Positions 7,965-48,666 of a stretch of DNA of 64,000 nt are shown here, piece by piece; the stretch's first letter is position 1; the number at the start of each line of letters is the position of its first letter. The notes under the pieces were generated by a model. The model was given only the letters and a program-made list of their open reading frames with translations. It made no database searches and was not told the DNA's origin. The position numbers and the translations under genes were made by a program. Source of the DNA: Eubacteriales bacterium (GTDB lineage: Bacteria > Bacillota > Clostridia > Oscillospirales > CAG-272); assembly GCA_045614425.1 (NCBI GenBank), contig JAZLCX010000143.1:24509-88508 (forward strand), given 5' to 3'.

Positions 7965-8828
7965 CTAGTTTTCGTTGTCCGGCTGAGACATTCTCAGCAA
8001 CTTTTGGAAGAGAAACGGTCTCAGCGATTCTGCGTTGTAGTTTCTCGTAAGTGTGCAGTCGTAAGCGATGGATATCGTACCTGTTTCTTCCGAAACAACA
8101 ATGACAATGGCGTCGCTTGTTTCGCTCATACCTATGGCGGCTCTGTGACGTGTGCCGAGGTCCGCATCGACGTCGGTGCGTCTGGTAAGAGGCAAAAGAC
8201 AGCCGGCGGCAACAATGCGCGCATCGTCTATAACCACAGCTCCGTCATGAAGAGGTGCTTTGTCGAAGAAGATGTTTCGCAGAAGAAATGAATTTACATC
8301 CGCATTTATCGAGATTCCGGTTTCGGTTATTTCATCGAGCTTAGTGGTACGGGATATTACTATGAGAGCACCGGTTTTTGTTCTGGAAAGGTCGGTCACC
8401 GCAGAGCAAATCTGGTCGATCGCCTTTGAATAAAGAAGTCTCTTCTTCTTTTGGTCGCCGAAAGACATTATTCCCGTAACCGAACCGGAGCCCACGCGCT
8501 CAAGCGCATCTCTTATCTCGGGTTGGAAAAGTATTATAAGACCGATGACACCTACGTCAAGTATCGCTGAAAAAATAAAGTTTGTCGCATCCAGATTGAA
8601 TATGTAAGTGATAAATGTCAAAATAACAATCAGAAAAACTCCTATAAGGAGCACTCCCGCCTTTCTGCTCTTGAAGAAACGAACGGCGAGAAAAAGTATT
8701 ACTGTGAGTAAGAGTATATCCACGGCATCAGTGACGTGAAATTCCGAAAATGCGTTTTTAACAGAATCAAAAAACGAGGAAAATGCGTCCCGAACACCTC
8801 GTGATGAAATTTGTATTAATGAATTCAT
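7965..8828 (-). CDS. cdaA: Diadenylate cyclase CdaA (c-di-AMP synthase)
   Basis: 287 aa. N-terminal TM helices are followed by a DAC domain with DGAVVI and GTRHRAAIG motifs. Confidence 0.93.
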   Translation of the reverse strand: MNSLIQISSRGVRDAFSSFFDSVKNAFSEFHVTDAVDILLLTVILFLAVRFFKSRKAGVLLIGVFLIVILTFITYIFNLDATNFIFSAILDVGVIGLIILFQPEIRDALERVGSGSVTGIMSFGDQKKKRLLYSKAIDQICSAVTDLSRTKTGALIVISRTTKLDEITETGISINADVNSFLLRNIFFDKAPLHDGAVVIDDARIVAAGCLLPLTRRTDVDADLGTRHRAAIGMSETSDAIVIVVSEETGTISIAYDCTLTRNYNAESLRPFLFQKLLRMSQPDNEN

Positions 8829-9048: not shown

Positions 9049-9714
9049 ATGGAATTAGAATATTGTGAATTCCTAAGAGACGTGTTCCTTTTCCGTAATA
9101 TCAAATGTGAAACTTTGTCTAAGATATTAAACGAAATTTCTCCGGAAATAAAGGAGTACTCTCATAAGGAGGAAATATATTCCCCGAACGATTTTGAAAA
9201 GAAACTCGGATTTGTGCTATCCGGTGAATGCACTGTAGAAAAAATAAAGCAGGAAGCCGCTGCTGTGCCGCTGAACACGCTTACCGCAGGAAAATCCTTC
9301 GGTATAATGGCTGTTTTTTCAAAAGAGGAGAAATTCCCTACCCGTATAACAGCGAAAAAGGCTACGAAGGTTCTTTTTATTCATCGGGAAGATGTTCTCT
9401 CTATTGTCAGAAAATATCCGGAAATTGCTATGAACGTCATTGAATTCTTAGCAAACAAGGTTGAGTTTCTTAACGGAAAGGTCGCAACATTTTCTGCAGA
9501 TACCGTTGAAGAAAAATTAAAAAGCTTCCTTTTAACCGAATATCGAAAAAACGGTCCGATTTTTTCTTTTAACTGCAAAAAAAGCGCTGAGTCCATAAGT
9601 GCCGGACGAGCCTCATTGTATCGAGCTCTTACATCGCTTACCGAAGCAGGAATTATCAAACTCGAAAACAAAAAAATTTATATATTAGACCCAAACGGTC
9701 TCGAAAGGAATTAA
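9049..9714 (+). CDS. Crp/Fnr-family transcriptional regulator
   Basis: 221 aa. N-terminal cNMP-binding-type barrel and C-terminal HTH (GRASLYRALTSLTEAGII). SD GAGGA lies upstream. Confidence 0.85.
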   Translation: MELEYCEFLRDVFLFRNIKCETLSKILNEISPEIKEYSHKEEIYSPNDFEKKLGFVLSGECTVEKIKQEAAAVPLNTLTAGKSFGIMAVFSKEEKFPTRITAKKATKVLFIHREDVLSIVRKYPEIAMNVIEFLANKVEFLNGKVATFSADTVEEKLKSFLLTEYRKNGPIFSFNCKKSAESISAGRASLYRALTSLTEAGIIKLENKKIYILDPNGLERN

Positions 9715-12066: not shown

Positions 12067-12095
12067 TTGACATATTGATAATTTGGTGGTATATT
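12067..12095 (+). promoter_or_regulatory. Sigma-A-type promoter of the decarboxylase operon
   Basis: TTGACA (12067-12072), 17 nt, TATATT (12090-12095), with TG at the extended -10 position. Confidence 0.6.
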
Positions 12096-12201
12096 GTATT
12101 TGGTGAAATTTGTGCTACGAATCAGAAATGCGCCATTTCACCTAAAAGCGTTATTATTATGGAAGGAGAGATTTACCGAAAAGGTAAATCGAGAATTCGG
12201 T

Positions 12202-13638
12202 TTGAATAAATACAGAAACACTGAAATCTGTGGACTTCCTACTGTCGAAGAACTTCGCGAAACCCTTCTTGCAGGAGCATCCTGCCCTGCAAGAGAGCGA
12301 CTTGCACTTCTGTTTGATGACAAAACCTTTGTCGAAACAGGCGCTTATGCTAAGCGAAGCTTTTCCGATTTTTTGTCCACGGAAGCTGCGAATGAATTTG
12401 AAGGAGTAATCTGCGGCTACGGCTCAATCAGCGGCAAGCTCGTCTTTGCCTTCTCAGAGGACACTTCGAGACTTGGTGGTGTCATTGATGAACGCCACGC
12501 AAAGAAGATCACCGATCTTTATAAGCTTGCATCCGAAAACGGAGCACCTATAATCGGAATTTTCGACTCAAACGGTACAGATATTTTTGAAGGTACAGCA
12601 GCACTTTCAGCTTACGGCAAAATAATGGCTTCGGTAGCCAAGGCTTCCGGAACTGTTCCGCAGATAGCATTTGTTGCTGGCAAATGTATCGGTTCTGCCG
12701 CTGCAATAGCTTCTATGTTTGATTTTGTTATCAAAAGTGAGGATGCACAGTTCTACGTTTCATCCCCCAACGTTACGGGTATCGGCAATGCACAGGACTC
12801 CGTCCTTGCCTACTCCGGCACGGATGCCGAGTGCGCTTATTACATAAGAACACTTGTATCATACCTTCCCGACAACTCTTCTCTTGGAGTTATGGTCAGC
12901 GAATGCACAGACAATCTTAACAAGAGACTCGGAGAACTTGATTTTGACGGAGAAGCTCTTGCTGCTATATCTGCGATAGCCGATAACAGCGTATATTATG
13001 ACGTGGCAGCTGATTTCGAGCCCGCAGCTTCCACTGTCTTTACAACCATCGGCGGTGTTAAATGCGGTGTCGTTGCAACTTCATTTTCAAAGAATGAAGG
13101 AAAAATAACCGCTATGATGGCAAGAAAAATAACGAAGTTCGTTAATTTCTGTAACGCCTTCTCGCTCCCGGTAGTCACTCTCGTTGACTCTTTGGGACTT
13201 GATGCTTCAAAGGAAAACGAAACCTCATATTATGCACCCGAGCTTGCAAGACTGGCTTTTGCATACTCAACATCATCAATTCCAAAGGTTACGGTAATTC
13301 TTGGTCACGCCATCGGCGCATCATTCGTACTTCTCGGTTCAAAATCACTAGGTGCGGATCTCGTGTATGCAACCGACACATCTGAAATCGGAGCGCTTAA
13401 TGCGGAGAGCGGTGTTGCTTTTGCTTGGGATAAGTACATAACACTCGAAAAAACGCGTGAGGACCTTGTAAAAGAGTGGAAGGCTTCGGTTTCTTCCCCT
13501 GCAGTAGCTGCTGCAAGCGGTGAAATTGATGATATAATCGGCATCAGTGAATTGAGAGCAAGAATATGCTCTGCTCTTCTTATGCTCTCGGCTAAGGGGT
13601 CCGTCTCCGCTTCAAAGCGAAAGATTCTTCCTCTTTAA
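12202..13638 (+). CDS. Acyl-CoA carboxyltransferase subunit (MmdA/PccB/12S fold), divergent
   Basis: Two carboxyl-transferase half-domains (ARERLALLFDD..., GGVKCGVVATSF...). The ORF-track start at 12094 lies inside the -10 box. TTG 12202 (MNKYRNTEICGLPTVEEL) is my best guess, but the start is uncertain. Confidence 0.85.
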   Translation: MNKYRNTEICGLPTVEELRETLLAGASCPARERLALLFDDKTFVETGAYAKRSFSDFLSTEAANEFEGVICGYGSISGKLVFAFSEDTSRLGGVIDERHAKKITDLYKLASENGAPIIGIFDSNGTDIFEGTAALSAYGKIMASVAKASGTVPQIAFVAGKCIGSAAAIASMFDFVIKSEDAQFYVSSPNVTGIGNAQDSVLAYSGTDAECAYYIRTLVSYLPDNSSLGVMVSECTDNLNKRLGELDFDGEALAAISAIADNSVYYDVAADFEPAASTVFTTIGGVKCGVVATSFSKNEGKITAMMARKITKFVNFCNAFSLPVVTLVDSLGLDASKENETSYYAPELARLAFAYSTSSIPKVTVILGHAIGASFVLLGSKSLGADLVYATDTSEIGALNAESGVAFAWDKYITLEKTREDLVKEWKASVSSPAVAAASGEIDDIIGISELRARICSALLMLSAKGSVSASKRKILPL

Positions 13639-13656
13639 TACGTGGGGGTGAATTTT

Positions 13657-13983
13657 ATGCTGAATATAGATTACTCACAGCCGCTCGGATTTTACGATGC
13701 AATCGGCTTTGGAGGTAAAATGCTGCTGCTCGGTATGGGCGCGGTTTTTGCGGTTCTGCTTTTAATTTGGTTTTTGCTTGTAATATTCAAACTTGTTTTT
13801 TCAAATGTAAAAGACAAAAAGAATGCAAAAGAGGAAAATATAGCTCCTGTTACTGCACCCCAAAGTCAAAGTATGAGCGCCGACGAAGAAATCATTGCGG
13901 TAATTGCGGCAGCAATCGCAATGGCTGAATCCGAAAGCTCCGAAGACGTAAAATTCAAAGTAGTTTCATTTAAGAGAAAATAA
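13657..13983 (+). CDS. OadG-family gamma subunit (membrane anchor of Na+-pumping decarboxylases)
   Basis: One TM helix, then EEIIAVIAAAIAMAES, which is typical of OadG. ATG 13657 lies 6 nt after SD GGGGGTG; the track starts 15 nt earlier at a GTG. Confidence 0.8.
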   Translation: MLNIDYSQPLGFYDAIGFGGKMLLLGMGAVFAVLLLIWFLLVIFKLVFSNVKDKKNAKEENIAPVTAPQSQSMSADEEIIAVIAAAIAMAESESSEDVKFKVVSFKRK

Positions 13984-14012
13984 CCGACAAACGATTTGAA
14001 AGGAATAATGCA

Positions 14013-14396
14013 ATGAAAAAGTATAATATAACCGTTAACGGTACAACATATGAAGTTATCGTAGAAGAAGCAGGTACGGTATCGGAAGTTTCCGCTCCCG
14101 CATTTGCGCCCACTGTATCTGCAGCTCCCACAGCTCCCGCAGCTCCTAAGGCAGCTCCCAAAGCAGCAGCTGCCAGCGCCGGCTCTAACAAGGTCGTAGC
14201 ACCTATGCCCGGCACAATTCTCGACGTAAAGGTATCTGTTGGACAAAATGTTAAAAAAGGCGACGTTATATGCGTGCTTGAAGCTATGAAAATGGAAAAT
14301 GACATTCCCGCTCCCTGTGACGGTGTTATAGCTTCGGTAAGCGTTCAAAAGGGGTCGTCAATCAACGCAAACGACATCATTGCTACAATTAACTAA
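14013..14396 (+). CDS. Stand-alone biotin carboxyl carrier protein (1.3S/MmdC type)
   Basis: 127 aa. N-terminal MKKYNITVNGTTYEV, an Ala/Pro-rich linker, and the biotinyl-lysine motif EAMKMEN. Confidence 0.9.
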   Translation: MKKYNITVNGTTYEVIVEEAGTVSEVSAPAFAPTVSAAPTAPAAPKAAPKAAAASAGSNKVVAPMPGTILDVKVSVGQNVKKGDVICVLEAMKMENDIPAPCDGVIASVSVQKGSSINANDIIATIN

Positions 14397-14422
14397 GATA
14401 TTTTGCAGCAGAGGTATTATAA

Positions 14423-15838
14423 ATGTTAGATGCTGTTAAAAACTTTCTAAAATCCACAGGAGTTAGTCAGCTGTTTTCTCAAAGCAATTGGTGGCAATAC
14501 CTTGTAATGTATGTAATTATAGGCGCGCTCTTTTACCTTGCAATTGTGAAAAAGTTTGAACCGCTCCTTCTCATGCCAATAGCATTTGGTATGCTCCTTG
14601 CAAACCTACCCGGAGCCAACCTTATGCATCTTGATTTTTTCTTTGACGAGCATTATCTCGCCGTAGAGAACGGTCAGGTCATAGGTAGCCTTGCTCCGGA
14701 ATTCAATCAGTTTCTCGCTTGGCTTCCCGACACTCTTCATTCGGTTACGTCGGACGGTTTTCTGGAACTTAATTTCACCGAAGAGGCTTTGAATGCCGCA
14801 GGGGTTACACTCGAGGAAATTTCCGCGAACTTTGATCTTTTCATTGGTAACGCGGCTTCGCTTGACGGTGGCGTAATTCACATCAACATGTCCACTATGA
14901 TTAAAGAAGTAATCAATCACGGCGGTCTCGTTGACTTCCTTTACTTAGGCGTAAAGCTTGGCATTTATCCCTCCTTGATATTCCTCGGCGTCGGTGCTAT
15001 GACCGATTTCTCGCCTCTCATTGCAAATCCGAAATCATTGTTTATGGGTGCCGGTGCACAGCTTGGTGTTTTTGTTGCATTCTTCGGAGCTTTGCTTCTC
15101 GGATTTTCTCCTATGGAAGCCGGTTCTATCGGTATCATAGGCGGAGCGGACGGTCCTACGGCTATCTTGGTAACAAAAACACTTGCTCCTCATCTTCTCG
15201 GCGCTATCGCGATTGCCGCATATTCTTATATGGCTCTTATTCCCATAATACAGCCTCCCTTTATGCGTCTTCTTACAACGAAGAAGGAACGCGCAATAAA
15301 GATGACGAACTTGAGACCCGTTTCCAAGATTGAAAAGGTTATCTTCCCTATTGTCGTAACACTTGCGGTAACACTGCTCATTCCCGATGCCGCGCCGCTT
15401 GTCGGCTTCTTAATGCTCGGAAATCTGTTTAACGTTGCGGGCGTTACCGACCGACTTTCCAAAACCGCGCAAAACGAACTTATAAATATCGTTACTATTT
15501 GTCTCGGTGTTTCTGTCGGTGCCACCGCAAACGCAGAAAATTTCTTGAGACCTGAAACCATTTATATAATCGTTCTTGGTCTGTGCGCATTTATCGTTTC
15601 CACCTGCGGCGGTCTTCTGACAGGTAAAATCATGTGCGTCCTCACCCGAGGAAAAATCAATCCGCTTATAGGCTCTGCCGGTGTTTCTGCCGTTCCTATG
15701 GCAGCCAGAGTCGCACAGGATGAGGGCCGCAAGGCTGACCCCTCCAACTTCCTGCTCATGCACGCAATGGGACCGAACGTAGCCGGTGTTATCGGCTCGG
15801 CAGTCGCAGCAGGCGTATTCCTCAGCTACTTCTTGTAA
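14423..15838 (+). CDS. Na+-translocating decarboxylase beta subunit (OadB/MmdB/GcdB family)
   Basis: 471 aa polytopic protein with family blocks KKFEPLLLMPIAFG, GVGAMTDFSPLIANP, IIGGADGPTAI, GSAGVSAVPMAARV and LLMHAMGPNVAGVIGSAVAAG. Confidence 0.92.
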   Translation: MLDAVKNFLKSTGVSQLFSQSNWWQYLVMYVIIGALFYLAIVKKFEPLLLMPIAFGMLLANLPGANLMHLDFFFDEHYLAVENGQVIGSLAPEFNQFLAWLPDTLHSVTSDGFLELNFTEEALNAAGVTLEEISANFDLFIGNAASLDGGVIHINMSTMIKEVINHGGLVDFLYLGVKLGIYPSLIFLGVGAMTDFSPLIANPKSLFMGAGAQLGVFVAFFGALLLGFSPMEAGSIGIIGGADGPTAILVTKTLAPHLLGAIAIAAYSYMALIPIIQPPFMRLLTTKKERAIKMTNLRPVSKIEKVIFPIVVTLAVTLLIPDAAPLVGFLMLGNLFNVAGVTDRLSKTAQNELINIVTICLGVSVGATANAENFLRPETIYIIVLGLCAFIVSTCGGLLTGKIMCVLTRGKINPLIGSAGVSAVPMAARVAQDEGRKADPSNFLLMHAMGPNVAGVIGSAVAAGVFLSYFL

Positions 15839-15859
15839 TCCAACTGAAAGGATAGAAAA

Positions 15860-17260
15860 ATGTCAAAAATTTTAATTACCGAAACAGCTCTTCGTGATGC
15901 GCACCAGTCTCTCGCGGCAACCCGTATGACAACCGAGGAGATGCTGCCGATTCTCGAGGATATGGATAAAGTAGGCTACTACTCCCTTGAGGCATGGGGC
16001 GGCGCTACGTTCGATACCTGTCTCAGATTCCTTAACGAAGACCCATGGACACGTCTTCGCACTATACGTGACCACGTAAAGAAGACCAAGCTCCAGATGC
16101 TTTTCCGCGGTCAGAACATTCTCGGATACCGTCACTACGCTGACGACGTCGTGGAATACTTCGTACAAAAGTCTATTGCAAACGGTATAGATATAATCCG
16201 TATTTTCGACGCTCTCAACGATGCAAGAAATCTTGAAACAGCAATCAAGGCAACAATTAAAGAGGGCGGTCACGTTCAAGCGGCAATTTCGTATACCACA
16301 TCTCCCTTCCACACGAACGACAACTTTGCGGATTATGCAAAGCAGCTTGAGGAAATGGGTGCAAACTCGATATGCATAAAGGATATGTCCGGTCTCCTTA
16401 AGCCGTTTGACGCATATCAGCTTGTAAAGACTCTGAAAAACACAGTAAAAATTCCCGTACACCTTCATACTCACTACACCGCCGGTCTCGGTTCTATGAC
16501 TTTGCTCAAAGCAATTGAGGCAAACGTCGACGGTGTTGACACGTCAATATCTCCTCTTGCAATGGGAACGTCTCACACCCCGACCGAGTCCCTCGTTGCA
16601 ACCCTCAGCAACACTCCTTACGATACAGAGCTTGCTCTTGATAAGCTCGACGTAGTTGCAAAGCACTTCAACAAGATAAGAGAAAAATATCTTGCATCCG
16701 GTCTCATTGACCCCAAGGTGCTTAAGGTTGACGTAAATACGCTTCGTTATCAGGTTCCCGGCGGAATGCTTTCGAATCTTATATCTCAGCTCAAAATGGC
16801 AGGAAAGTCTGATAAGCTTGACGAGGTTCTTGAAGAGGTTGCAAGAGTCCGTGAGGATGCCGGTTACCCGCCCCTCGTTACCCCCACATCGCAGATTGTC
16901 GGTACACAGGCTGTAAACAACGTAATATTCAAGAGCGAAGGCAGATACGCAAGAGTTACCAAGGAATTTAAAGCCCTGATACGCGGCGAGTACGGAAGAT
17001 GCCCTGCGCCCGTTTCCGAAGATTTCAGAAAGCAGATTATCGGCAATGATACCGTCATTGATTACCGTCCTGCTGACAAAATCGCCCCTGAAATCGATTC
17101 GCTCCGTCAAAGAGTTGCTCCTTATCAGGAGCAGGACGAGGACCTTCTCTCTCTTGCTCTTTTTGAACAGGTTGCAGTTAGATTCTTCGAATTCAGAAAG
17201 CAGATCAAATATAATCTCGACTTGAATTCCGACGTTAAAAACGGTATACACACAATTTAA
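15860..17260 (+). CDS. Oxaloacetate/pyruvate carboxyltransferase (OadA N-terminal / 5S / PycB type) lacking a biotinyl domain
   Basis: 466 aa with TETALRDAHQSL, IRIFDALND and VHLHTHYTAG (TIM-barrel carboxyltransferase). There is no AMKM motif. Confidence 0.9.
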   Translation: MSKILITETALRDAHQSLAATRMTTEEMLPILEDMDKVGYYSLEAWGGATFDTCLRFLNEDPWTRLRTIRDHVKKTKLQMLFRGQNILGYRHYADDVVEYFVQKSIANGIDIIRIFDALNDARNLETAIKATIKEGGHVQAAISYTTSPFHTNDNFADYAKQLEEMGANSICIKDMSGLLKPFDAYQLVKTLKNTVKIPVHLHTHYTAGLGSMTLLKAIEANVDGVDTSISPLAMGTSHTPTESLVATLSNTPYDTELALDKLDVVAKHFNKIREKYLASGLIDPKVLKVDVNTLRYQVPGGMLSNLISQLKMAGKSDKLDEVLEEVARVREDAGYPPLVTPTSQIVGTQAVNNVIFKSEGRYARVTKEFKALIRGEYGRCPAPVSEDFRKQIIGNDTVIDYRPADKIAPEIDSLRQRVAPYQEQDEDLLSLALFEQVAVRFFEFRKQIKYNLDLNSDVKNGIHTI

Positions 17261-17267
17261 ATTAACA

Positions 17268-17304
17268 GAAAAATCCCCCTACTTTCGGTAGGGGGATCTT
17301 TTTA
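17268..17304. terminator. Bidirectional intrinsic terminator between the decarboxylase operon and ftsH
   Basis: ATCCCCCTAC / GTAGGGGGAT stem (17273-17282 / 17288-17297), flanked by an A-run and a T-run. Confidence 0.8.
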
Positions 17305-17305
17305 T

Positions 17306-19456
17306 TTATTTTTCCTCATCAGATTTTTTCGTATTTTCGCCATCTTCGTTTGCGTCCGACGAATTATCGCTTTCTTCTTCCGGTACGTTAAAGACCGTTG
17401 AGAAGAACTCATCCACCGGGAATCCTCCCGATTTTTCCATCTCCTCGCGGTGACGCTTAAGCTCTTCTTCAGCCTTGCGCCTGGCTTCCTCTTCCGCCTT
17501 TTCATTATTAGCGTGAGCGGTTTTGTTTTCCTCTTCGCTCTTTTGCTTTTTAGCAGCGGCAATCGCCTCAATATACTCTATTGTAGGCTCTTCGGCTTCC
17601 ATAGCAGCCTTGAACTGTTCCTCGTCCATAGACTCATTTTTAAGAAGGAATTCTGCGATGAAATGAAGCTTATTGATATTTTCGTTCAGAATTTTTTCGC
17701 AAACATTATAGCACGATGCAATAATATCACGTATCTCTTCGTCTATTTCCGATGCAGTTTTTTCCGAATAATTTTTGCCAGACGAGAAGTCTCTGCCAAG
17801 AAATACCTCATCCTGCGAATGCTCTGAGCCGTAAAGAACTGTACCGAGCTTTGAGCTCATACCGTAGCGCGTAACCATGTTACGAGCTATCGCAGTAGCC
17901 TGCTGAATATCGTTGGATGCTCCCGTTGAAATATCGTCAAGAACGATCTGCTCCGCAACTCTTCCTCCGAGTGCCAAAACTATTCTGTCGAGCATTTCAT
18001 TACGAGAGATTACCATTCTGTCCTCCGTGGGAACGCTTATGGTAACTCCGCCGGCAGAGCCTGCGGGAATTATCGTAATATGCTTTACAGGGTCGGTATT
18101 CTTACAGTAGTACGAAGCGACTGCGTGACCTGCCTCATGATAAGCACAAAGCTTATTATCCTTTGCAGTTCGCATGTTTTTCTTCTTTTGCGGACCGAGA
18201 AGAAGCTTCATATAAGACTCCTCAATATCGACCATACCGATAAGAGCCTTATTTTTCTTTGCGGCGCGAAGAGCTGCCTCGTTCATAAGGTTTGCAAGCT
18301 CCGCACCGGTAAAACCAATAGTTGTTTCTGCAATCTTTTTAAGATTTACCGATTCTTCAAGCGGCTTATTACGGCAATGAACCTTCAATATTTCTTCTCT
18401 GCCCTTCATATCAGGGTAATTTACCGTAACACGTCTGTCGAATCTACCGGGACGTAAAAGTGCCGGGTCAAGTATGTCGGGGCGGTTTGTGGCGGCCATT
18501 ACTATAACGCCGGAATTTGTACCGAAGCCGTCCATTTCCACAAGAAGCTGGTTGAGAGTCTGTTCTCTCTCATCGTGACCGCCGCCAAGACCTGCGCCTC
18601 TGTGTCGGCCTACTGCATCAATCTCATCTATAAATATGATACTTGCAGGTGTCTTTCTCGCATTTTCGAACAAATCACGAACTCTGGAAGCACCTACACC
18701 AACGTACATTTCCACGAAATCCGAACCGGAAATCGAGAAGAAAGGAACTCCTGCTTCTCCGGCAACAGCCTTAGCAAGAAGCGTCTTACCCGTACCGGGA
18801 GGGCCTACGAGCAGTACTCCGCGCGGAATACGGGCGCCGAGCTTTACAAACTTAGTAGGATCCTTTAAGAATTCAACAACTTCTTCAAGCTCCGCCTTTT
18901 CCTCATCAGCGCCTGCAACATCGGCAAACTTCACGGCATCCTTTTCGTTATGTGAAAGCTTAGCCTTGGATTTTGAGAAGGAATTCATCTTTCCACCGCC
19001 GCCCGGAACTTGGCGCATTATGAAAATCCAAAGTCCGATAAAGAGAACGGCAAGAATTATATACGGAAGATATGCAACATACCACGGGGTTTCCGCTGCG
19101 CGCTCTATGTCATAATCCTCGAGGGTGACACCCGATCCGACAAGCGACATTATATGCTCCATCTGAAAAGCATAGCTCAGCTTGTATTCAAATATCTCGT
19201 GAACATAGACAAGCTCGCCGTCAACCTCTTGCATTTCATATCCGCCGCCGGCTTTTTCTTTACGCGTATGCAATTCGAGATTGAGATCTCCGTCTATTTT
19301 GAAATAGATGACGTCATCATTTTCAAATTTTTCAACTACCTCGCCATACGTGAGCTCTTTTGTGCCGTTCAAGCTGCTTGTGAAAGCAGTTACAGCAATT
19401 ATCACAGCAACGACAAGGAAAACGAGCATAAATATGCTCTTGAAATTAACCTTCAT
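17306..19456 (-). CDS. ftsH: ATP-dependent zinc metalloprotease FtsH
   Basis: 716 aa. N-terminal TM, Walker A GPPGTGKT, zinc motif HEAGHA, and a long Glu/Lys-rich C-terminal tail. Confidence 0.97.
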
Positions 19457-22785: not shown

Positions 22786-24786
22786 TCATAATTCGAGATA
22801 AGCGTCTATACCCGCTTTAAGTGTCTCGAGCACCTCAGCGACAGAATTCGACACAACCTGCGCACCCGCAACGTCAAAGTGTCCGCCGCCATTAAATTTT
22901 TCAAGAATCAACTGTACGTTTATCTTTCCGTTAGATCTGCCTGAAATGTGTATCTGTTCACCTATTCTTACAAGGGCAAACGCCGCATCTATTCCTCGGA
23001 GAGTGAGCATTTTGTCGGCGGCTTTAGAAGCGATAACACGGTAAGTTTCATCGGTTTCTCCGTCGCAGGCGGAAATTGCAATTCTATCTCTGTAGGTTAT
23101 AATTGCAGTGTGGAATCTTGCCTCCTTTGACAAATCCTCTGCCGACGTTTTGAACATGTTATATACATCGGTGGGGCTTGCTCCCGCGCCGCGAAGATAC
23201 TGCGCTGCGCCGAAGGTTCGTGTTCCGGTGTTTCTCGTAAACTGCTTCGTATCAAGGAGAATTCCCGAAAGAAGCATGTTTGCAACCTCTTTAAGAAGGC
23301 TCTGAGAGCTTATCGCATTTTCGAGCATCTCGGTTACAAGCTCGCAAGCGCTCGATGCCGAAGGCTCAAGGTAGGAAAGGCGAACGGTATCCGAAGCCTT
23401 CTCTATTCTTCTGTGGTGATCAATAACAGCAATATTTTTCACCTTTTTAGCAATATCCGGGAACTGCGCGCGTTCTATAATATTGTGGTCGACAAGCACC
23501 ACAAGTGTGTCAGGACCTACAAGATCAAGTCCCTCTGCATTATCCACAAACATTTGCGAGTATATATCGGTTTCCTGCATCATTCGAATGCACGGTAAAA
23601 GGTTCTTATCACGCATATCGACTGCTATATTGGCTTTTACACCGCAAAGCATACAGAGTCTTGCAACACCGACCGAAGCACCGAAGGAGTCAAAGTCACC
23701 GTAACGGTGTCCCATGATAACCACGTTATCTGCACGCGCCATAAGAGCGGTAAGCTGGTTCGTAAAGGTTCTGGAGCGCACGTTGGAGCGCTTGTACACC
23801 GATTTCGTTCTTCCGCCGTAATATTCGGTCGTTGTTTCGGTTTTGTAAACCGCCTGGTCGCCTCCGCGCTGAAGAGCCATATCTATTGCATCTCTTGCGG
23901 CAAGTTCGCGGTCTGCAAGTGTTCCCTTCACACGGGAAACACCGATGGAAACAGTAAGCGAAACGCTGTCACCGACTCTCGTCTCTCTTATGGTATCAAG
24001 AATTGCAAATCTGTCCTTTATACATTCATCGAGATACACCGAGTCAAAGAACATTACGTATTTATCGTTATCATACGACTTAATGATGCCGTTAACGGAC
24101 TGCGCCCACTTTTTAAGCTTTGCATCTACCACCGCAACAGCATCTCTGGACTGCTCGTGAACGTACTGCAATACGTCCTCAACGTTATCTATTGCAATAT
24201 ATGCTACGGCAACTCGCTCATCGGAATACTTTTTCTCAGCTTCGCTGAGTGTTGTAATATCCGTAAGCATGGCGAGATAGAGACCGTCGCCATCCTCGCT
24301 CACTTTAAACCCTTCGATCTTATACAGTCTTCCCTTTACTTCGGTGACCATATCCGAAAAGGTTTCGTGATCAAATTCCGCAGTAAATATCTTTCCGATA
24401 TTTTCCCCGACCAGTGTTTCCTCGGACTGTATAATAGCTCGCATAGAATCGTTATACCAAAGCACAGTTCCGTGCACGTCAAGAGCGATGACGGGATACA
24501 GCGAATTCTTTATTACGATACTGCCGTCTTCATTAAGAATCCTATGGATACTTGCGGACGGATGGACCTTGATATTAGACTTATGGTTTAACCCGATAAA
24601 CGAAACTTCGATAAGGTATATAAGGGTAACAAGTATTGCCGCAAATACCGCCGATGTTTCCCAAAACTCAGCTATTACGGCAAGCACCGCTATGTTTACG
24701 CAAGCAAGAGCTATGGACAGCGCTATTTCAAAGCGCGATGCGTACGGTATTCTCAGCTTTACATGTCTGCTATTCTTAAACGACAT
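22786..24786 (-). CDS. gdpP: c-di-AMP phosphodiesterase GdpP (TM-PAS-degenerate GGDEF-DHH/DHHA1)
   Basis: Two N-terminal TM helices, DHH motif VIDHHRR and DHHA1 GGGH. The yybS-gdpP-rplI-dnaB synteny is present. ATG 24786 is preceded by GGAGAGGTG; the track start is a TTG 18 nt upstream. Confidence 0.9.
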   Translation of the reverse strand: MSFKNSRHVKLRIPYASRFEIALSIALACVNIAVLAVIAEFWETSAVFAAILVTLIYLIEVSFIGLNHKSNIKVHPSASIHRILNEDGSIVIKNSLYPVIALDVHGTVLWYNDSMRAIIQSEETLVGENIGKIFTAEFDHETFSDMVTEVKGRLYKIEGFKVSEDGDGLYLAMLTDITTLSEAEKKYSDERVAVAYIAIDNVEDVLQYVHEQSRDAVAVVDAKLKKWAQSVNGIIKSYDNDKYVMFFDSVYLDECIKDRFAILDTIRETRVGDSVSLTVSIGVSRVKGTLADRELAARDAIDMALQRGGDQAVYKTETTTEYYGGRTKSVYKRSNVRSRTFTNQLTALMARADNVVIMGHRYGDFDSFGASVGVARLCMLCGVKANIAVDMRDKNLLPCIRMMQETDIYSQMFVDNAEGLDLVGPDTLVVLVDHNIIERAQFPDIAKKVKNIAVIDHHRRIEKASDTVRLSYLEPSASSACELVTEMLENAISSQSLLKEVANMLLSGILLDTKQFTRNTGTRTFGAAQYLRGAGASPTDVYNMFKTSAEDLSKEARFHTAIITYRDRIAISACDGETDETYRVIASKAADKMLTLRGIDAAFALVRIGEQIHISGRSNGKINVQLILEKFNGGGHFDVAGAQVVSNSVAEVLETLKAGIDAYLEL

Positions 24787-24821
24787 ATTTAAACACCTCT
24801 CCAAATAGACAAAGTTGCTGT

Positions 24822-47319: not shown

Positions 47320-48501
47320 TCAAATGCAAAGAGATTTAAGCTCGTCAGCTATATCGCAAATCTCCCACTTGACAGCAAGGTCCTCACGTCCCATATGACC
47401 GTAAGCGGCAAGCTCTTTATATATAGGCTTTCTAAGGTCGAATTTTTTGATAATAGCCGCAGGACGAAGATCAACAAGCTTCTCAACAGCAGCACTGATT
47501 TTCGCCTCGTCCACGGTAGACGTACCAAAGGTATCAATCATAACCGATACCGGACGTGCAATACCTATCGCGTATGCAATCTGAACCTCGCACTTCTCTG
47601 CAAGGCCTGCTTTTACAATATTCTTTGCAACGTATCTTGCGGCATAAGAAGCGCTGCGGTCAACCTTTGTCGGATCTTTGCCCGAAAAAGCTCCGCCGCC
47701 GTGTCTTGAATATCCGCCGTAAGTATCAACTATTATCTTTCTGCCCGTAAGACCGGTATCACCCTGAGGACCGCCGATGACAAATCTTCCTGTCGGATTA
47801 ACGTATATATTCATCTTTCCGTCGATAAGCTCTCTAGGAATAACAGGCAAAATTACGTTTTCAATTATATCCTTACGGATAGTAGCCGAATCGATTTCGG
47901 GGCTGTGCTGAGAGGACACAACCACCGTATCAACCCTCTTCGGCTCACCGTCTATGTATTCAACTGTAACCTGTGTTTTTCCGTCGGGGCGAAGATAAGA
48001 AAGCTTGCCCGATTTTCTGACCTCGGTGAGCTTCTTCGCAAGACGGTGGGAAAGAGAAATGGGAAGAGGCATAAGCTCGGGGGTTTCATTGCAGGCATAT
48101 CCGAACATAAGTCCCTGGTCGCCGGCTCCCGTATCAAGCTCATCGGTCATATCACCGTCCTTGGCTTCAAGGCACTTGTCAACTCCAAGTGCGATATCAG
48201 CGCTCTGCTCATGTATCGAGCTAAGCACAGCGCAGGTGGTGGCATCAAAACCGTACTTTGCTCTGTCATAGCCGATTTCGCTTACGGTTTCGCGCACTAT
48301 CTTTTGCACGTCAATCTTTGCCTTAGTAGTGATTTCTCCCATTACGGTAATTATACCCGTAGTAGCAAACGTCTCACAAGCGACACGGCTCTCCGGGTCC
48401 TGTGCAAGTATTTCATCAAGAATTGCATCTGAAACCTTGTCGCATATTTTGTCGGGATGTCCTTCGGTTACCGACTCCGAGGTAAATAAAACTTTTTTCA
48501 T
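47320..48501 (-). CDS. metK: S-adenosylmethionine synthetase
   Basis: 393 aa with [20 protein letters not shown] and GGGAFSGKD. Confidence 0.98.
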
Positions 48502-48529: not shown

Positions 48530-48666
48530 ACAAAAAAATCGAAAATCTCACCAAGAGATTCCCGAAGTTCAGACTCATACTCATCTGTCAGGAATTAGCA
48601 CCTTGTAAAAATTACAGGTTGCCGGGTTTCACAGGGCCGGTCCCTCCGCCACTCTTGATAAGCAAT
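48530..48666 (-). promoter_or_regulatory. SAM-I (S-box) riboswitch with terminator, metK leader
   Basis: The minus strand reads CTTATCAAGAGTGGCGGAGGGACCGGCCCTGTGAAACCCGGCAACC...GGTGCTAATTCCTGACAGATGAG, matching the S-box core. It is followed by CGGGAATCTC-TTGGT-GAGATTTTCG and a U-run. A TTGATT-17-TATACT promoter lies just upstream. Confidence 0.9.

Follow-up and report, generated by a model that had tools for sequence, protein, structure and literature searches.

A five-gene operon of gut and rumen Clostridia that may encode a membrane-anchored transcarboxylase with an accessory sodium pump

Introduction

Textbooks divide biotin-dependent enzymes into carboxylases, whose biotin is charged at the expense of ATP, decarboxylases, which charge it from a donor and give off the CO2 at a Na+ pump, and a single transcarboxylase. 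Here we describe a five-gene operon located in a stretch of 64,000 nucleotides of contig JAZLCX010000143.1 from a Eubacteriales bacterium (this whole stretch is called the window below). The operon codes for two different carboxyltransferases, one biotin carboxyl carrier protein (BCCP, or carrier), a small membrane anchor (gamma) and a Na+-translocating subunit (beta). Judged by its gene content it is a hybrid of known kinds, with a transcarboxylase-like core and a membrane module like that of oxaloacetate decarboxylase (OAD) or methylmalonyl-CoA decarboxylase (Mmd), and it is widespread. It is not a plain OAD or Mmd because a second transferase is present, and it is not a classical soluble transcarboxylase because membrane parts are present. 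We propose that the operon encodes one membrane-anchored machine for biotin-dependent carboxyl transfer in which the transcarboxylase core is obligatory and the Na+ pump is accessory, a proposal to which we would give about an even chance. The locus had first been pointed out in an inspection of the letters of the window alone, which we refer to as the sequence-only reading.

The characterised biotin-dependent Na+ pumps, namely Oad, Mmd, Gcd and the malonate enzyme, contain one transferase each (PMC7145394; PMC8085960). All characterised relatives with a beta subunit are decarboxylases (PMC7145394; PMC8100219), and a review states that in the decarboxylase Na+ pumps the carboxyl group 'is not transferred to a substrate' (PMC8100219). 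In Enterococcus faecalis a split OAD has been described which is composed of separate OadA, carrier, OadB and OadH proteins and does without an acyl-CoA carboxyltransferase (PMC3198936, PMC6193673).

Pump-less sets consisting of an acyl-CoA-type carboxyltransferase (hereafter CT), gamma, BCCP and an OadA-like protein are found in Clostridium thermocellum (Clo1313_1523-1526, with the gamma-like gene included, or Cthe_0699-0701) and a pump-less set also in Clostridium cellulolyticum (Ccel_1736-1738); both are annotated as 'oxaloacetate decarboxylase'. In C. thermocellum the CT is present in the membrane fraction (PMC3039559) and OAD activity was reported as not detected (PMC8303734). One curated metabolic model of this organism, which 'lacks a standard acetyl-carboxylase', treats the cluster as a transcarboxylase that serves as malonyl-CoA source (PMC5414155). 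For Geobacter bemidjiensis an operon for 12S, 5S and a carrier has been predicted to act as a transcarboxylase. We found no characterised enzyme with the five-gene set in the searchable literature, and in this literature there was no paper which couples a transcarboxylase with oadB or which tests the C. thermocellum cluster, or any of the other clusters named here, experimentally.

Results and discussion

Layout of the operon

Five co-directional open reading frames (ORFs) are situated between 12.1 and 17.3 kb of the window, between one conserved promoter and one terminator:

12067..12095, plus strand: sigma-70-type promoter (TTGACA, 17-nt spacer, TG-extended TATATT; 11/12 matches)
12202..13638, plus strand: CT, a divergent single-chain acyl-CoA carboxyltransferase of the 12S/PccB/MmdA fold (478 aa, TTG start)
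13657..13983, plus strand: OadG/MmdD-type anchor (108 aa)
14013..14396, plus strand: stand-alone biotin carboxyl carrier protein (127 aa)
14423..15838, plus strand: OadB-type Na+-translocating carboxybiotin decarboxylase, beta (471 aa)
15860..17260, plus strand: OadA/5S-type oxaloacetate-pyruvate carboxyltransferase without a biotinyl domain (466 aa)
17273..17297, both strands: intrinsic terminator hairpin of 11-14 bp with T-runs on both strands, found by a scan and shared with the convergent ftsH

From the CT gene to the 5S-like gene the intergenic gaps are 18, 29, 26 and 21 nt, and ftsH (17306-19456, minus strand) converges on the terminator. The sequence-only reading had described the five plus-strand genes as one operon with a single promoter and a single terminator; all five ORFs are found in their places, and the Pfam and NCBIfam profile searches agree with its list of parts. 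It had also considered that the 5S-like gene could be transcribed separately, against which speak the gap of 21 nt in front of this gene and its presence in every homologous locus that is sufficiently long.

The promoter and the terminator were the top-ranked sites of the regional scan, which returned 11 sites where 10.6 were expected from shuffled sequences and hence is not above chance. Despite this count the promoter is credible because it is conserved in about 40 homologous loci: in these, the sequence TTGAC[TA]-17-TG-TATA[TG]T precedes the start codon by a constant distance of about 95-110 nt. The constant position supports a single predicted transcription start for the operon.

The frame of the CT gene is open from 12094. 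Its start was placed at the TTG at 12202, giving 478 aa, because the homologues are 477-478 aa long, the gene callers agree and both the Shine-Dalgarno sequence and the TTG are conserved; a longer protein starting at 12094 was ruled out on the same grounds. For the anchor the ATG at 13657 used by the gene call is the most likely start (108 aa).

The 5S-like protein, beta, carrier and anchor

The product of the last gene contains the HMGL-like and PYC_OADA domains. It passes the cut-off of the short OadA model NF008985 (730 vs 718 bits), scores 567 bits on the 5S model NF008984 (cut-off 827) and reaches 702 bits on the PycB model NF006761. It aligns end to end with the carboxyltransferase domain of Vibrio cholerae OadA (2NX9, E 3.5e-145) and with 5S (1RQB, E 9e-133); in the PDB it also aligns with the beta chain of the two-subunit pyruvate carboxylase. 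The motifs RDAHQS, IKDM and HLHTH are kept, including D13, K174, H201 and H203. With 83-92% identity within the family, this gene is the most conserved one of the operon.

The beta subunit matched Pfam OAD_beta with 512 bits and TIGR01109 with 487 bits (cut-off 191). When aligned with OadB of Salmonella (6IVA), the residues D203, Y229, N373, G377, S382 and R389 are all kept, the equivalents in the window being D243, Y269, N413, G417, S422 and R429. The roles of these OadB residues are said to have been worked out in the Dimroth laboratory. All known catalytic residues are intact in both beta and the 5S-like protein. Beta also contains a hydrophilic insertion after the second helix (about aa 69-166; 14627-14920 of the window), the length of which is very variable in the family. 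The whole protein comprises 407-417 aa in 10 loci, 456-491 aa in most and 543 aa in one; in distant operons it comprises 386-400 aa.

The carrier (Pfam Biotin_lipoyl, 79 bits) has an Ala/Pro linker and a biotinyl-Lys93 within EAMKMEN. Its best NCBIfam match is the MmdC model NF047903 (118 bits, cut-off 200). In the PDB it matched MmdC of Pyrococcus horikoshii, the domain of 1.3S (1DCZ, E 1.3e-11) and the C-terminus of the beta chain of two-subunit pyruvate carboxylase. Like the carrier of a transcarboxylase it is small and has an N-terminal docking segment; the predicted docking strand MKKYNITVNGTTYEV aligns to the strand ahead of the carrier domain in 5KS8_C. The 1.3S protein presumably has an N-terminus similar to this strand, MK..(V/I)TVNGT.Y.V.

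The anchor is of the OadG type (Pfam OAD_gamma, 63 bits, E 4e-17; TIGR01195, 38.7 bits vs cut-off 36.05). Its single transmembrane helix spans aa 22-44, and the tail at its C-terminus, EEIIAVIAAAIAMAESE...KFKVVSFKRK, is conserved. The MmdD model NF047902 was matched with 31 bits (cut-off 150), which is not at the equivalog level, and a sequence search of the PDB gave no match for the anchor.

Conservation of the gene order and repeated loss of the pump

Relatives of the CT were searched for in one genome per species. Of the 115 loci obtained, the best 80 were kept; all of them come from metagenome-assembled genomes (MAGs) of uncultured Clostridia, Eubacteriales or Oscillospiraceae from ruminants, other animals and the human gut. 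Contigs with the operon are, for instance, JAFQOP010000014, JAZPAK010000013 and JAZNZE010000055, and pump-less examples are JAZORD010000072 (locus L005) and JAZTXP010000010 (locus L044). The order CT-gamma-BCCP-beta-5S, which the sequence-only reading had proposed to look for in other genomes, was found in 54 of the 62 loci (window included) that are evaluable among these best 80 of 115, that is, whose contigs are long enough. The arrangement is therefore common rather than a single case, and sets without the pump have stood for a long time in the annotations of C. thermocellum and C. cellulolyticum. Of six distant CT members (34-47% identical), five are encoded in the same five-gene order. 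In the sixth, the distant locus L085, the CT gene is accompanied by genes for a small protein, the carrier and the 5S-like protein, and beta is lacking. Between the distant operons the identity amounts to 34-47% for the CT, 66-77% for beta and 61-73% for the 5S-like protein (45% for the 5S-like protein of the pump-less L085).

An acyl-CoA-type CT and a gamma-type anchor are present in every locus. In every locus that reaches far enough the operon ends with the 5S-like gene, and none of these loci lacks it. Beta is present in about 85% of the loci. It is absent from eight, or from nine of about 63 evaluable loci if the truncated L017 is counted, and here the junctions between the BCCP and 5S-like genes are clean. 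On a neighbour-joining tree of the CT these pump-less loci are found at about six separate places. In one of them, L048, the spacer between the carrier and 5S-like genes (8213-8420) still contains two fragments of beta, corresponding to aa 343-376 (65% identity) and aa 455-470, the scar of a recent deletion.

The other four genes did not follow the pump. In the pump-less lineages CT, gamma, BCCP and the 5S-like protein are all of full length, and the anchor always keeps its transmembrane helix and the tail EIIAVIAAAIAMAESE..GLKFRVVSFRR. In the pump-less clade L044/L051/L078 the ratio of nonsynonymous to synonymous substitutions (dN/dS) is 0.04-0.10 for the CT and 0.007-0.013 for the 5S-like gene, the overall range of the latter being 0.007-0.06, with synonymous sites saturated in the deeper pairs. 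In pump-less loci the four genes are under purifying selection. The two transferases and the carrier are inherited together whether or not a pump is there: they are intact in the 8-9 pump-less loci of the family and in the distant L085.

The divergent carboxyltransferase

The CT matched Pfam Carboxyl_trans with 220 bits over profile positions 10-483 of 493. On the mmdA model TIGR01117 it obtained 275 bits, far from the cut-off of 998.8. In a search of the PDB it was about 30% identical to the beta subunit of propionyl-CoA carboxylase (PCC beta), 12S, PccB and AccD5 at near-equal distances (E about 1e-62). The matches to GcdA were much weaker (1PIX, E 2.4e-6; 3GF3, E 3e-4), and on this comparison a GcdA-type identity was ruled out.

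An AlphaFold2 model of the CT based on 50 homologues (predicted local distance difference test, pLDDT, 88; predicted template modelling score, pTM, 0.87) was superimposed on 6YBQ, 7YBU and 1ON3, PCC beta, PccB and 12S among them, with template modelling (TM) scores of 0.85-0.88. With 12S (1ON3) the TM score is 0.88 at 30% identity, and like 12S the CT has two crotonase-fold domains. Taken together, sequence and model place the CT within the superclade of short-acyl-CoA carboxyltransferases and outside all of its named families.

In the alignment with the carboxyltransferases of the PDB the motifs of the CT are DSNGTDIFEG (aa 122-131), GKCIGSA (aa 160-166) and GHAIGASFV (aa 368-376). The two stretches singled out in the sequence-only reading, GKCIGSAAAI and GHAIGASF, are thereby confirmed: the canonical GPCAGGA is changed to GKCIGSA and RKAYGGAY to GHAIGASF. 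However, the loss of the second Gly does not make this CT an odd protein, as had been hinted. It belongs to a very large radiation of short (440-510 aa) single-chain carboxyltransferases (proteins P0121-P0270 of a library of 50%-identity representatives), nearly all of which have G-x-C-x-G-[not G] and G-x-A-[Y/I]-G-[S/A/G/T]; in this library, proteins of the canonical PccB kind surface only near 210 bits. Among members 31-64% identical to the CT the residues K102, S123, G125, E130, C162, A370, S380, G384 and D386 show little or no variation, and the same holds for the first Gly of each motif. These residues, together with G160, G164 and G372, belong to the scaffold that the CT has in common with working carboxyltransferases. 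Because the first Gly and the scaffold residues are near-invariant across the radiation, the altered motifs are regarded as a family trait and not as decay. No named or cultured relative of the CT was found in the 50%-representative library, by cluster look-ups or by profile search; the relatives are merely called 'hypothetical' or 'carboxyl transferase' and come from MAGs of Clostridia.

The dN/dS of the CT is 0.02-0.10, with synonymous sites saturated in the deeper pairs. A dead enzyme was judged unlikely in view of this ratio, the conservation of the motifs and the scaffold residues. The oxyanion holes of the crotonase fold use backbone amides, so that catalysis could survive a side chain at the second position.

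At the column of the specificity residue Asp422 of PccB the CT has a Val. In the PDB entries 3IAV, 3IB9 and 1XNW this Asp is mutated to V, L and I. Work on such mutants is reported to have shown that residues other than Asp widen the specificity towards acetyl-CoA. The Val would fit a substrate range beyond propionyl-CoA.

Comparison with described systems

Like the transcarboxylase of Propionibacterium (EC 2.1.3.1), the window encodes a CT of the 12S fold, a 5S-type carboxyltransferase and a 1.3S-like carrier with an Ala/Pro linker, and this trio of 12S, 5S and 1.3S is what the pump-less relatives keep. Unlike the soluble transcarboxylase, the operon always includes an OadG-type anchor and in about 85% of the loci OadB. 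Its CT also differs from Propionibacterium 12S, with about 30% identity and without the canonical CAGG/YGGA, and is never encoded beside mutase or epimerase genes.

Mmd of Veillonella parvula and Propionigenium modestum (MmdA, D, (E), C, B) resembles the operon in another way. The best NCBIfam matches of the first three products are mmdA, MmdD and MmdC, and beta is intact. In mmd operons the genes are arranged in the order acyl-CoA carboxyltransferase, small anchor, carrier and beta, which is the order of the first four genes in the window. Unlike in Mmd, however, the scores for mmdA, MmdD and MmdC stay below the cut-offs, a fifth gene for an oxaloacetate carboxyltransferase is always present, and beta is dispensable in several lineages of the window type.

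With the OAD Na+ pump of Klebsiella, Salmonella and Vibrio (OadABG) the operon shares the OadA-type carboxyltransferase domain, OadB, the OadG-type anchor and the catalytic residues, and as in the OAD of E. faecalis (OadA, OadB, OadD, OadH) the carrier is a separate protein. In contrast to OAD, an acyl-CoA CT is always encoded by the first gene, the pump is missing in 8-9 loci and there is no link to citrate-lyase genes. The clusters of C. thermocellum and C. cellulolyticum, putative transcarboxylases, have by described gene content the same genes as the pump-less loci, and the window adds the pump.

A possible carboxyl-transfer machine at the membrane

As beta was lost repeatedly while the transferases, the carrier and the anchor stayed under selection, the function common to all loci would use both transferases without the pump. 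From the sequence comparisons, this common function would have to be carboxyl transfer between oxaloacetate/pyruvate and an acyl-CoA.

For the proposed transcarboxylase with an accessory pump we envisage the following steps. The OadA/5S-type subunit would transfer the beta-carboxyl group of oxaloacetate to the biotin of the single carrier and release pyruvate. The carrier would dock via its N-terminal strand, and the C-terminal tail of the anchor would hold the assembly at the membrane. Two outlets would then be available for carboxybiotin: first, the divergent CT could pass the carboxyl group on to a short acyl-CoA; second, the OadB subunit could decarboxylate carboxybiotin and export Na+. 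All steps would be reversible in principle, and with beta present carboxybiotin could also be formed by the reverse reaction. Such a reversal of biotin-dependent Na+ pumps is said to have been described by Dimroth and Hilpert in 1984. How the parts assemble, in which direction the flux runs and which acyl-CoA is used we infer here.

As to the acyl-CoA step, the most likely reaction would be the conversion of acetyl-CoA to malonyl-CoA for fatty-acid synthesis without ATP; alternatively, propionyl-CoA could be converted to methylmalonyl-CoA. The operon is flanked by housekeeping genes (xerC-like, amidase, radA, EF-G-like, ftsH, tilS, relA, recJ, cdaA and the dcw cluster). No fab, acc, methylmalonyl-CoA mutase/epimerase or citrate-lyase genes adjoin it in the 80 loci or occur in the 64-kb window. 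Housekeeping flanks without mutase or epimerase would fit a core role rather than a propionate-specific one. We favour malonyl-CoA as the probable product because of the C. thermocellum precedent, the housekeeping flanks, the lack of nearby propionate-pathway genes and the non-Asp residue at the PccB-422 column; propionyl-CoA/methylmalonyl-CoA is a serious alternative.

Several observations do not sit easily with the proposed transcarboxylase. In the CT neither of the canonical oxyanion motifs has kept its second Gly, and two further motifs are altered (DSGGARIQEG to DSNGTDIFEG, VDTPGY to VDSLGL). Between distant operons it evolves about twice as fast as beta and the 5S-like protein (34-47% vs 61-77% identity), which is unexpected for an essential source of malonyl-CoA. 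With beta present, the pump would compete with the CT for carboxybiotin. The malonyl-CoA role of the C. thermocellum cluster is a modelling assumption. Finally, the 'six losses' are read from a neighbour-joining tree without support values, and all the genomes are metagenome-assembled.

The sequence-only reading had offered two functions, a switchable transcarboxylase/Na+ pump and a dual-substrate decarboxylase. With beta lost about six times and the rest retained, the former is favoured and the latter, in its pure form, has become less probable. In such a dual-donor Na+ pump, oxaloacetate and methylmalonyl-CoA or malonyl-CoA would both be decarboxylated via the shared carrier and beta without net transcarboxylation. 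We regard this as unlikely, although beta is found in most loci with its catalytic residues intact, the first four genes are in mmd order with mmdA, MmdD and MmdC as best matches, and the characterised beta-bearing relatives are all decarboxylases. Once beta is lost with the four other genes under purifying selection, there would be no outlet for carboxybiotin unless an acceptor exists; in addition, mutase and epimerase genes are lacking nearby in the 80 loci and the CT scores far below the mmdA cut-off (275 vs 999 bits). The pump-less lineages are poorly accommodated by this explanation, as they are by that of a non-catalytic CT (see below).

A second explanation is that the operon provides the transferase parts for two ATP-dependent enzymes, acetyl-CoA carboxylase and pyruvate carboxylase, which would share the one carrier and have it charged by a biotin carboxylase of the AccC/PycA type encoded elsewhere. 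The score of the 5S-like protein on the PycB model points in this direction, and so does the resemblance of the carrier to carriers of ATP-dependent enzymes (8HZ4_E, 5KS8_C). We nevertheless consider it very unlikely. The membrane anchor is always and the pump usually co-encoded, and the pump would waste carboxybiotin made with ATP. No biotin carboxylase gene was found within +/-6 kb in the 80 loci or in the 64-kb window, and C. thermocellum is reported to lack the standard acetyl-CoA carboxylase (PMC5414155).

Least probable, though by a narrow margin, is a split OAD of the E. faecalis type with the CT as a non-catalytic, 12S-like scaffold or regulator: such an OAD exists without any acyl-CoA CT, and the CT has lost the second Gly of both oxyanion motifs, shows changes in several canonical motifs and is the fastest-evolving large subunit, but the first Gly of each motif and the scaffold residues are near-invariant at a dN/dS of 0.02-0.10, oxyanion holes made of backbone amides may tolerate a side chain at the second position, and in the pump-less loci a mere scaffold would leave a system without a reaction to run.

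Returning to the transcarboxylase with an accessory pump, its operon connects a transcarboxylase with a decarboxylase pump through a single carrier. By its distribution the arrangement is ancient, frequent among Clostridia of the gut and rumen, and kept by selection. It also marks out a very large group of carboxyltransferases, as yet without a name of its own, in which the oxyanion motifs are altered. If malonyl-CoA is made on the acyl-CoA side, this would explain how fatty-acid synthesis starts without acetyl-CoA carboxylase, for example in C. thermocellum, and the ATP-free route of carboxylation would be of interest for metabolic engineering. A more far-reaching idea, which we put forward tentatively and hold to be doubtful, is that a large and for the most part uncultured clade of gut and rumen Clostridia has replaced the ATP-dependent acetyl-CoA carboxylase by a membrane-bound oxaloacetate:acetyl-CoA transcarboxylase whose single swinging biotin is shared with a reversible Na+ pump. 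If so, one machine would link the supply of malonyl-CoA with the phosphoenolpyruvate-oxaloacetate-pyruvate node and with the sodium-motive force: oxaloacetate, or CO2 together with the Na+ gradient, would be the source of carboxybiotin, and fatty-acid synthesis or pumping would consume it.

Leader and regulatory signals

Three further features were identified around the predicted transcription start and in the leader of the CT gene:

12081-12088 and 12098-12105, plus strand: operator-like direct repeat ATTTGGTG, with one copy on either side of the -10 box and predicted transcription start
12161..12170, plus strand: Shine-Dalgarno sequence GGAAGGAGAG in front of the first gene; it is kept in almost all of the 44 aligned leaders
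12170..12190, plus strand: 8-bp hairpin GATTTACC-gaaaa-GGTAAATC between the Shine-Dalgarno sequence and the start codon

Across about 40 aligned leaders the bases of the repeat ATTTGGTG are nearly invariant, which exceeds what the promoter hexamers need; a regulator might bind there. A gene for an XRE-family helix-turn-helix protein of about 280-290 aa directly adjoins the operon in 34 of the 80 loci, and such a neighbour is also found in distant clades (L085, 6060-6914; L086, 12758-13636). The window is without it; here a Crp-family gene (9049-9714) and ABC-transporter genes are situated upstream of the operon in its place.

The first gene starts with TTG in all 44 aligned leaders, and the hairpin (7-9 bp) is present in 40 of them. 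For the seven stem pairs that were counted, 100% of the cells pair and three pairs change on both sides; none of 500 shuffles matched this pairing and covariation. The stem is ATTTGC..GCAAAT in the family and ATTTACC..GGTAAAT in the window, a compensatory change. Together with a CGGGAATTCGG block the hairpin separates the Shine-Dalgarno sequence from the TTG by 32 nt. In the remaining four leaders the whole 31-nt block is missing and the Shine-Dalgarno sequence is placed 7-8 nt ahead of the TTG, and the distant operons have plain GGAGG-N7-9-ATG leaders. From this pattern, the hairpin may belong to a ribosome-binding site that is split in two, or may serve in the control of translation. An Rfam search with the leader returned no known RNA family. 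An upstream ORF of 16 codons (ATG at 12159) was considered as a coupling device and ruled out, its ATG not being conserved.

Genomic neighbourhood

RelA/SpoT, RecJ, FtsH, TilS, DnaB and RuvB surround the operon of the window, which is a conserved housekeeping neighbourhood. Within 8 kb on either side of the operon are the genes for the c-di-AMP cyclase CdaA (7965-8828, minus strand) and the phosphodiesterase GdpP (22786-24804, minus strand). Further away, an S-adenosylmethionine (SAM) riboswitch (Rfam RF00162, 73.7 bits; 48578-48664, minus strand) immediately precedes the gene for S-adenosylmethionine synthetase (47320-48501, minus strand), which is an ordinary arrangement.

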